From Deinococcales bacterium (GTDB taxonomy: Bacteria; Deinococcota; Deinococci; Deinococcales; JAAFIG01), in the NCBI GenBank assembly GCA_025352125.1, contig JANXTZ010000045.1, positions 783 to 64,782 on the forward strand: DNA of 64,000 nucleotides. Reading direction: 5' to 3'. Shown piece after piece: positions 39,430 through 40,196 of the stretch. Made by a program: the position numbers and the translations under genes. How positions within the stretch are numbered: the stretch's first letter is position 1; each line of letters opens with the position of its first letter. Below the pieces are notes generated by a model, which worked only from the letters and a program-made list of their open reading frames with translations, was not told where the DNA came from and searched no databases.

Positions 39430-39482
39430 TTTCAAGCCAACGGCTTTTCCATCTCGAGTTTCAAAAACGACTCGAGCACCAC
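39430..39482. repeat. 53-bp direct repeat, orphan copy of the phosphorylase gene 3' end
   Basis: 51/53 identical to 40144-40196. On the minus strand it reads VVLESFLKLEMEKPLA-stop, against VALEAFLKLEMEKPLA-stop in the intact gene. Confidence 0.9.
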
Positions 39483-39507
39483 TTTTGGAAGCCCGTTCTG
39501 AATTGGT

Positions 39508-39810
39508 TCATGACTGCTGAAAAACACGCACTTCAAGCTCGAGTTTACCAGCCAGACGGTCATGTTCTCGCTCGAGGTCAAAGGTGGTTTGAAGGTTCAT
39601 CCAGAAGCGTTCTGAAGTGCCAAAAAAATGTGCAAGACGCAACGCGGTGTCGGCACTGATACCGCGTTTCCCATGAACAATTTCGTTGATTCGACGTGGT
39701 GGAACACTCAAGGATTTTGCCAGACGGTATTGGGAAATGACAAGTGGTTTGAGGAATTCCTCGAGCAACACCTCACCTGGGTGAATTGGCGATAATTTAT
39801 TGATTTTCAT
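39508..39810 (-). CDS. higA: HigA-type HTH antitoxin (VapI/HTH_3 type)
   Basis: 100 aa. IHPGEVLLEEFLKP..ISQYRLAKSLSVPPRRINEIVHGKRGISADTALRLAHFFGTS. Confidence 0.85.
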   Translation of the reverse strand: MKINKLSPIHPGEVLLEEFLKPLVISQYRLAKSLSVPPRRINEIVHGKRGISADTALRLAHFFGTSERFWMNLQTTFDLEREHDRLAGKLELEVRVFQQS

Positions 39811-39832
39811 GTTGCTCCTTTCTGGTTTTCTT

Positions 39833-40114
39833 TCAGTGATAGTCCACAATTTCCACGTCGAAAGCATCGCCATCTTTCCACTTGAAACAGATTCGCCATT
39901 GATCGTTGATGCGGATGCTGTACTGCCCTTCTCGGTCACCAAATAATTTCTCGAGTCGATTGCCTGGAGGCACAAGCAGGTCTTGAAGAACCGTTGCGGC
40001 TTCGAGCATGACCAATTTGCGTAAGGCGGTACGCAGGATATCGGGTGGTAATTTGCGAACTGGTTCACGGGCAAACAGTCTGGCGGTTTCTTCATCTGCG
40101 AAATTCCAGATCAC
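39833..40114 (-). CDS. higB: HigB-type toxin (plasmid maintenance killer protein family)
   Basis: 93 aa with a GTG start. LPPDILRTALRKLVML...PPGNRLEKLFGDREGQYSIRINDQWRICF. Confidence 0.85.
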   Translation of the reverse strand: MIWNFADEETARLFAREPVRKLPPDILRTALRKLVMLEAATVLQDLLVPPGNRLEKLFGDREGQYSIRINDQWRICFKWKDGDAFDVEIVDYH

Positions 40115-40117
40115 ATA

Positions 40118-40149
40118 AAAAGCATAACGTTTTGCGTTATGCTTTTCAA
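40118..40149 (-). promoter_or_regulatory. higBA-2 promoter overlapping a perfect 12-bp inverted repeat that also sits at the phosphorylase terminator position
   Basis: Minus strand reads TTGAAA-17 nt-TATGCT, then 6 nt to the GTG. The palindrome aaaagcataacg/5 nt/cgttatgctttt spans 40118-40146. Confidence 0.55.
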
Positions 40150-40196
40150 GCCAACGGCTTTTCCATCTCGAGTTTCAAAAACGCCTCGAGCGCCAC
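40144..40196. repeat. 53-bp direct repeat, functional copy at the 3' end of the phosphorylase gene
   Basis: See 39430-39482. This copy is in frame with the 40146-40868 CDS. Confidence 0.9.

Follow-up and report, generated by a model that had tools for sequence, protein, structure and literature searches.

How toxin–antitoxin (TA) pairs come to occupy ordinary sites in the chromosome when no mobile element is visible is the question on which the locus described here bears. It lies in a 64,000-nucleotide stretch of DNA from a Deinococcales bacterium (GCA_025352125.1, contig JANXTZ010000045.1, positions 783 to 64,782 of the forward strand; hereafter the window), in which the TA operon higBA sits directly behind the stop codon of PNP-A, a gene for a DeoD-like nucleoside phosphorylase, and the end of that gene is present on both sides of the operon. 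Comparison with related loci (numbered L001 and so on) allows the locus to be read as a series of one event, comprising an empty site, a fresh-looking occupied site in the window and progressively decayed occupied sites in other lineages. The insertion is old and shared, and it may have been made by the host without any recombinase.

The occupied and the empty site

The features on which the argument turns are the following, in window coordinates:
38882..39376, plus strand: gene with a fasciclin domain, beyond the insertion site as seen from PNP-A
39386..39431, unstranded: bidirectional terminator hairpin, shared by the fasciclin gene and, ancestrally, PNP-A; position conserved in L004 and L086
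39430..39482, minus strand: left repeat copy, an orphan PNP-A 3′ end that abuts the ancestral terminator, as the single copy in L004 does
39483..40143, minus strand: insert of 661 bp, made up of promoter/operator, higB, higA and a 25-nt tail
40144..40196, minus strand: right repeat copy, with the 17 functional codons that close PNP-A, stop codon among them, plus 2 nt; its final 6 nt are TTGAAA
40146..40868, minus strand: PNP-A, the target gene, encoding a DeoD-like nucleoside phosphorylase of 240 aa (PNP_UDP_1)
40878-41609: PNP-B, a tandem paralogue next to PNP-A

The two direct repeats are identical at 51/53 positions and the similarity ends sharply at both sides. The right copy encodes the terminal ...VALEAFLKLEMEKPLA-stop of the 240-aa PNP_UDP_1 protein, whilst the left copy reads VVLESFLKLEMEKPLA-stop within an orphan open reading frame (ORF) of 49 aa, and both differences between the copies are nonsynonymous. 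Insert and one repeat copy together amount to a net insertion of 714 bp, and 714 bp now separate the PNP-A stop codon from its ancestral terminator.

The closest PNP-A proteins (91–95% identity) come from uncultured Deinococcales metagenome-assembled genomes (MAGs) and JGI metagenomes; at the nucleotide level, identity to these relatives is 85–90% in PNP-A, PNP-B, the fasciclin gene and RsgA, and ~79–83% over longer collinear flanks. It was found that L004 (a Deinococcales MAG, CAXTTL010000012.1) has at 8673-8723 a single 53-mer which aligns to both window copies and runs directly into the terminator hairpin and then the fasciclin stop codon, just as the window orphan does. The one-copy, empty site in L004 means that the window carries a 714-bp insertion. 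A common dispersed repeat is ruled out as the source of the two copies, since the 53-mer occurs at PNP-A ends only: at three or fewer mismatches the 64-kb window holds these two copies alone (n=2, with none expected from shuffles), and at 12 or fewer mismatches 1.5 Mb of fetched loci hold it at the PNP-A 3′ ends of L004, L005, L084/L168, L085 and L086, at the L086 orphan and in no other place.

The presence of tandem phosphorylase paralogues, together with the 60% similarity of the PNP-B 3′ end to the 53-mer, allows a purely local origin to be considered, in which the orphan would be the remnant of a third tandem phosphorylase copy whose body had been replaced by higBA. Such a rearrangement is very improbable: it is with PNP-A and not PNP-B that the orphan shares 96% identity, the repeats end sharply, and the L004 empty site aligns to both copies and both flanks. 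Moreover, there is no phosphorylase remnant upstream of the orphan, and the 53-mer is the sole PNP-A-like stretch in the interval.

These results bear out the initial annotation, made from the window alone, in several respects. It had described direct repeats 51/53 identical over 53 bp, a right copy forming the true end of the phosphorylase gene, an orphan left copy and two nonsynonymous differences, with all of which the sequence comparison agrees. Its proposal of a true insertion with 3′-end duplication is upheld, as the empty site that it had suggested looking for, with the terminator beside the phosphorylase stop codon, exists in L004; and the 53-mer is not a common dispersed repeat, which it had named as a finding that would tell against its reading, given the two copies in the window and the restriction to PNP-A ends across the 1.5 Mb of loci.

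The same insertion, with homologous junctions, is present in L086, in L084/L168 and in L085. In L086 both repeat copies are found, 45/53 alike (85%), and at 3 of the 8 differing positions the orphan resembles the native allele of L004. In L084/L168, PNP-A and higBA are followed by the same 25-nt tail and by an orphan which has a 1-nt deletion and is ~70% alike; L085, which is the same strain as L084/L168, breaks off inside higA. The 25-nt tail after higA is homologous in L086 and L084, and in a neighbour-joining tree of PNP-A the higBA carriers group together, with weak support.

The interval from PNP-A to DUF3291/RsgA is variable among relatives. It holds the fasciclin gene only in L004, higBA and the fasciclin gene in the window and L086, and a 304-aa gene, a 649-aa beta-helix gene and the fasciclin gene in L001. 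In L168, higBA and the orphan are followed by a shikimate dehydrogenase/GntR/TctCBA block and a beta-helix gene, without fasciclin; homology to the window stops 4 nt short of the distal end of the orphan, and no third repeat copy, which would mark tandem accretion, was seen in L168. Synteny is lost right after PNP-A in L005, where a 124-aa ORF and two further ORFs follow.

A possible trace of the repeat is also seen in L001, in the form of a 15-nt exact match beside the fasciclin gene near the expected place of the orphan, with a score at about the 90th–99th percentile of null windows. It is possible that this is a decayed orphan with a different cargo and, if real, it would mean a hot spot, not absence of the insertion. 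The initial annotation had held that the same duplication in relatives without higBA would tell against its reading; the possible weak orphan of L001 touches on that argument, and no such arrangement was established.

Some further observations concern the neighbourhood of the phosphorylase genes. In L005, the two ORFs ~400 bp downstream of PNP-A (8745-10124) were read as a putative split IS630-type transposase, and a 202-aa ORF (7318-7926) lies between PNP-B and PNP-A, overlapping the extended PNP-B end. Just upstream of PNP-B, the window has a gene for a methyltransferase dependent on S-adenosylmethionine (41640-42416, 258 aa) which is window-specific, with a conserved terminator hairpin at the boundary; at this position there are only ~110 bp in L005 and other genes (DUF7873 and others) in L001, L004 and L085, and no flanking repeat was seen around the methyltransferase gene.

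Age of the insertion and state of the repeats

Synonymous divergence (dS) of the window higB and higA from the relatives' copies is 0.40–0.83, and that of PNP-A is 0.47–0.52. In addition, the positions of the hexamer CTCGAG inside higBA coincide across lineages; the insert has 4 such sites, with a window average of one per 152 bp. The similarity in dS between higBA and the flanking genes (about 0.5) and the shared CTCGAG positions indicate that the insertion is old and long resident, as had been proposed from CTCGAG density at the outset. The operon is under strong purifying selection, with ratios of nonsynonymous to synonymous divergence (dN/dS) of 0.035–0.066 for higB and 0.035–0.07 for higA (0.03–0.07 overall), as low as those of PNP-A.

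The hexamer is conspicuous in its own right. It is by far the commonest in the 64-kb window (422 occurrences against ~17 expected), and an excess of 6–8 per kb runs across the uncultured Deinococcales clade (window, L001, L002, L004, L005, L007, L086, L087 and L168), with merely 0.12 per kb in Deinococcus alpinitundrae; no explanation for the excess in Deinococcales was found in the literature. The window also contains an intergenic tandem repeat at 47958-48057, with a 28-bp period (CCGCAAGGGGGCAAAA plus a 12-nt variable part) and 3–4 units.

An old insertion makes the near-identity of the two window repeats the feature to be explained. Had they diverged since the lineages split, about a quarter of the positions would be expected to differ, and the probability of two or fewer differences in 53 would be ~2e-5. 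Set against the consensus of the relatives, there is a single change per window copy, namely Ser to Ala in the functional copy and Ala to Val in the orphan, where the ancestral Ser codon is retained. The combination of an old insertion with near-identical repeats points to recent gene conversion or re-acquisition, not to a recent first insertion, and we infer that the window repeats were recently homogenised by gene conversion or re-formed by homologous exchange. The near-identity can thus no longer be taken as the mark of a recent event, the insertion being shared by lineages at dS of about 0.5 in which the orphan has decayed.

Exchange of the cassette between lineages is hinted at by L087. 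Here, all that precedes higBA (3414-4083) of PNP-A is the final 34 nt of its coding end, RsgA is the immediate neighbour and no phosphorylase genes lie upstream, which shows that part of the PNP-A tail moves with the cassette. The host gene RsgA has a dS of 1.0–1.3 and higB one of 0.29–0.57, a comparison of few sites and of different genes, and these values hint at horizontal transfer of the cassette into L087.

The operon, its promoter and the joint

The insert and its immediate border contain the following features:
39508..39810, minus strand: higA antitoxin gene, 100 aa; HTH_3; TIGR02607, E=3.8e-32, 110 bits against a cutoff of 47.7
39833..40114, minus strand: higB toxin gene, 93 aa; PF05015, E=1.5e-19, 70.7 bits against a cutoff of 27
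40118..40146, unstranded: inverted repeat, 12 bp and perfect, enclosing a 5-nt loop and lying between the −35 and −10 boxes
40121..40149, minus strand: promoter-like site, TTGAAA-17 nt-TATGCT, which ends 6 nt before the GTG start

Gene order is toxin-first, with higA directly downstream of higB on the minus strand. Both marks of the type II HigB/HigA class are found, a toxin domain of the RelE-fold HigB kind and a downstream HTH antitoxin, and on its sequence and the low dN/dS of both genes this is probably a functional type II HigB/HigA operon. There is nothing unusual about the HigB and HigA proteins themselves, and exact-sequence look-ups of PNP-A and HigB gave no match. The statement that the insert holds only higB–higA and a perfect 12-bp inverted repeat was thus accurate, on the evidence of the PF05015 and TIGR02607 matches and the palindrome at 40118-40146.

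The palindrome between the promoter boxes is the presumed HigA operator. higB has a GTG start without a Shine-Dalgarno sequence, and its mRNA is likely to be leaderless. As RNA, on read-through from PNP-A, the palindrome is predicted to form a hairpin of −21.3 kcal/mol (z=−4.4), followed by UUUUUAU, and may act as a substitute terminator for PNP-A.

The −35 hexamer of higB, TTGAAA, lies inside the right repeat and spans the PNP-A stop codon; its placement within the duplicated segment, noted earlier, is supported by the promoter-like site at 40149-40121. The window cassette begins directly after the −35 box, so that the hexamer itself is target sequence, and at the joint this hexamer is TTGACA in the empty L004 site and TTGAAA in both window copies. 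A −35 hexamer that is target sequence and is TTGACA-like places the joint at a 6-nt microhomology between cassette promoter and target. Upstream regions of distant cassettes were read in L093, L105 and L121, which share a layout of TTGACA, a 17-nt palindrome-holding spacer, TATTAT, ~6 nt and the start codon; the spacer palindrome is TAACGC-N3-GCGTTA in L093 and L105 and less regular in L121. The layout, to which the window contributes 40112-40149, is conserved across distant HigBA homologues and suggests leaderless higB mRNAs in several phyla.

Elsewhere in the window, two adjacent minus-strand ORFs (145 and 147 aa; 34934-35811) lie between RuvB and a DNA-alkylation-repair gene. By synteny with an HTH_26 and PIN pair in L001, they are probably a second TA module.

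Routes of insertion and comparison with known systems

No recombinase or transposase was found in the insert, in the annotated neighbourhoods of the relatives (8 kb each side) or among 20 window ORFs of 207–396 aa, in keeping with the initial annotation, which had seen no integrase nearby. In addition, no tRNA was found in the window, an Rfam scan of 36000-44000 gave no match, and the ends of the insert are not linked by an inverted repeat. Several kinds of element were set aside on such grounds: a transposon, insertion sequence or miniature inverted-repeat transposable element, as there are no terminal inverted repeats and the duplication is one of 53 bp, not a short fixed one; an integron gene cassette, as the 25 nt after higA leave no attC and the repeat is a two-copy gene end; and an integrative element bearing its own recombinase, as none is present in the insert, its neighbours or the 20 window ORFs.

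We give an even chance to host-mediated, recombinase-free insertion of the ‘long target duplication’ type in a Deinococcales ancestor, followed by retention, homogenisation and portability through homologous recombination. On this account, higBA would have been inserted between the PNP-A stop codon and its terminator in an ancestor that several uncultured Deinococcales lineages share, the last 53 bp of the target being duplicated, and one joint would lie at a TTGAMA hexamer that is both the stop-codon context of the target and the −35 box of the cassette family. The operon would be self-contained, as the target supplies the −35 box, the HigA operator would lie between −35 and −10, and the higB start seems leaderless. 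Selection or addiction would have kept the operon, whilst the orphan copy would decay neutrally in other lineages and the window orphan would recently have been homogenised, whether through gene conversion or on being re-acquired in a homologous exchange. A fragment made up of PNP-A, higBA and the orphan would form a portable structure, in which the orphan could act as homology arm on the right, pairing with the 3′ end that the recipient already has, in any allele with an intact PNP-A end. A portable structure with such an arm would account both for the downstream block of L168, which is a different one, and for the fresh look of the window repeats; the break at the distal end of the L168 orphan, with a different block beyond it, fits the homology-arm idea. 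The 53-bp repeats would also allow precise loss, regenerating an L004-like site, which TA addiction would oppose.

More distant higBA loci were sought by a metagenome scan with HigB, which gave 80 loci, all distant homologues (58–70% identical), and no further close relatives. Enough flanking sequence was available at 45 of them, to which our own repeat finder was applied. A direct repeat straddling higBA, its two copies lying upstream of higB and downstream of higA respectively, was found at 10/45 loci against 9/309 shifted controls (Fisher P=1.6e-5). These ten loci are a heterogeneous group, amongst which the following stand out:
L121, 3888-3947/4600-4659: TatD-like target, 60-bp repeat, 95% identity
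L093, 1425-1521/2324-2420: nitroreductase/ferredoxin target, 97-bp repeat, 87% identity
L153, 347-401/994-1048: SufB/D target, 55-bp repeat, 87% identity
L105, 2984-3026, 3892-3934 and 4636-4678: the 3′ half of tRNA-Thr(CGT), 43 nt long, present in three direct copies
L134, 317, 2274, 3112, 3806, 4605 and 5548: six copies of a boundary repeat (CCTAACCCGCGCATGCAGCCGAC...)
L136, 1178, 3865, 4594 and 5895: four copies of a boundary repeat

L121, L093 and L153 are true analogues, having two copies only, the upstream one being the end of a housekeeping gene. In these three loci and the window the target stop codon ends 4 nt or less from the distal end of the repeat, so that a stop-codon-anchored duplication recurs at three unrelated loci and, with the window, in four unrelated target genes. 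The three cassettes are compact, with 0–141 nt upstream and 12–79 nt downstream, and the distance from repeat to promoter varies across the analogues from 0 to ~120 nt. In L105 the repeats bound two small cassettes, higBA and one without a Pfam match, with no integrase within 4 kb either side. L134 and L136 carry higBA inside arrays of 0.7–2.7-kb cassettes parted by a conserved boundary repeat, and these arrays are probably of integron type.

A broader, tentative possibility is that the HigBA family is a recombinase-free selfish cassette which has repeatedly landed behind housekeeping stop codons with a 50–100-bp duplication; the orphan would serve as a homology arm, spread would be by transformation and RecA, and addiction would oppose loss. 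If true, this would be the TA counterpart of the ‘virus-like life cycle’ proposed for restriction–modification units, and a way for TA pairs to move without mobile elements.

Integration by a recombinase acting in trans, for which cis-mobilizable elements (CIMEs) offer an analogy, has to be weighed against the recombinase-free route. A small circular element, or an island reduced to the TA pair, would have carried the PNP-A 3′ end as its attP and been integrated by a tyrosine or serine recombinase, leaving the 53-mers as attR and attL. This process classically leaves direct repeats of a gene's 3′ end and a regenerated gene, the junctions are identical in several lineages, and the site, whose cargo differs in L001, L168 and L005, resembles a hot spot; the three-copy tRNA-Thr 3′-half array around higBA in L105 is also in its favour. 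The L086 copies, which differ at 8/53 positions with the orphan like the L004 native allele at three, are as expected of a diverged attP, yet neutral decay of the orphan and a fast-evolving protein tail explain them equally well. Against it stands the lack of any recombinase in the insert, within 8 kb either side in relatives or among the 20 candidate-size window ORFs. The cargo, moreover, is only an operon from promoter to stop, flanked by at most 29 nt, and the three analogues are alike compact, to which state repeated decay of islands is improbable, and the variable distance from repeat to promoter argues against fixed element ends. We regard site-specific integration as unlikely. Nothing was found to show an attL/attR-like, integrase-type origin as first suggested, and the idea that the cassette is what remains of a larger, deleted island is itself unlikely in view of the three independent, equally tight analogues.

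Homology-facilitated illegitimate recombination is another route that needs no recombinase. A donor with higBA after PNP-A would have recombined homologously on the left, within PNP-A, and been joined illegitimately on the right, 53 bp before the recipient's stop codon, leaving the recipient 3′ end as the orphan. This would account for repeat lengths that vary between cases and for a gene-attached allele that differs from the orphan, as in L086, and most cases of long target duplication are in naturally competent species (Furuta et al., PMC2853133). It is nevertheless quite improbable, since it only shifts the question to the origin of the donor arrangement and to the stop-codon position in four unrelated targets. 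Furthermore, sliding-window identity along PNP-B, PNP-A and higBA revealed no mosaic tract of unusual similarity or divergence among the sampled lineages.

A number of points weigh against the ancestral, recombinase-free insertion that we prefer. Long target duplication is a label rather than a pathway, even for restriction–modification systems, and microhomology is seen at one joint only, the one that can be read without the cassette's donor sequence. A recombinase encoded elsewhere, acting in site-specific integration, would leave the same footprint, and the L105 tRNA-Thr array looks integrase-like. The L004 empty site could be the product of precise loss through the repeats rather than the ancestral state, the case for gene conversion in the window is purely numerical, and the clade of higBA carriers is weakly resolved in a star-like phylogeny.

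The closest known parallel to the preferred, host-mediated insertion is the long target duplication described for restriction–modification gene units (Nobusato et al. 2000, Gene 259:99; Furuta, Abe and Kobayashi 2010, PMC2853133; also PMC3874152). Cases include Thermus and are mostly in naturally competent bacteria, and the repeats of 46 bp in Haemophilus influenzae overlap the 3′ ends of genes (PMC2853133). The window shares with them a small selfish addiction unit without a mobility gene and unique direct repeats of >30 bp that align to a single copy in the empty site (unique, here, across the window and the 1.5 Mb of relatives' loci), and in both the repeats may overlap the 3′ end of a neighbouring gene. 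It departs from them in its cargo, which is not a restriction–modification system but the TA pair higBA, and in a repeat that ends 2 nt after the stop codon and supplies the −35 box of the cassette. HigB is an mRNA-cleaving toxin, and the link proposed between restriction–modification cargo and DNA breakage therefore cannot apply here. No report of TA systems inserted by long target duplication turned up in the literature.

Some integrative elements insert at the 3′ end of a gene or tRNA and restore it; phage 21 and e14 in icd and tRNA-targeting islands are examples. As in the window, these leave direct repeats of the target 3′ end, with the gene intact at one side and an orphan displaced to the other; unlike them, the window has no integrase, excisionase or other element genes, and its cargo is one 661-bp operon. 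Integron gene cassettes carrying higBA are found in the Vibrio cholerae superintegron. They resemble the window in being promoter-to-stop TA units between direct repeats with no recombinase inside, whereas the window repeat is a two-copy housekeeping-gene end and not a multi-copy, attC-like boundary of the kind seen in the similar arrays of L134 and L136.

In its gene content the window operon matches chromosomal type II HigBA modules, which are likewise toxin-first, with a PF05015 toxin, a TIGR02607 antitoxin and a promoter palindrome. The interest lies in the mode of insertion, long target duplication having so far been described for restriction–modification genes and appearing here in a TA variant. 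If the pattern holds, long target duplication would extend from restriction–modification to TA systems, both of them addiction modules, and simple spread by homologous recombination would be suggested.

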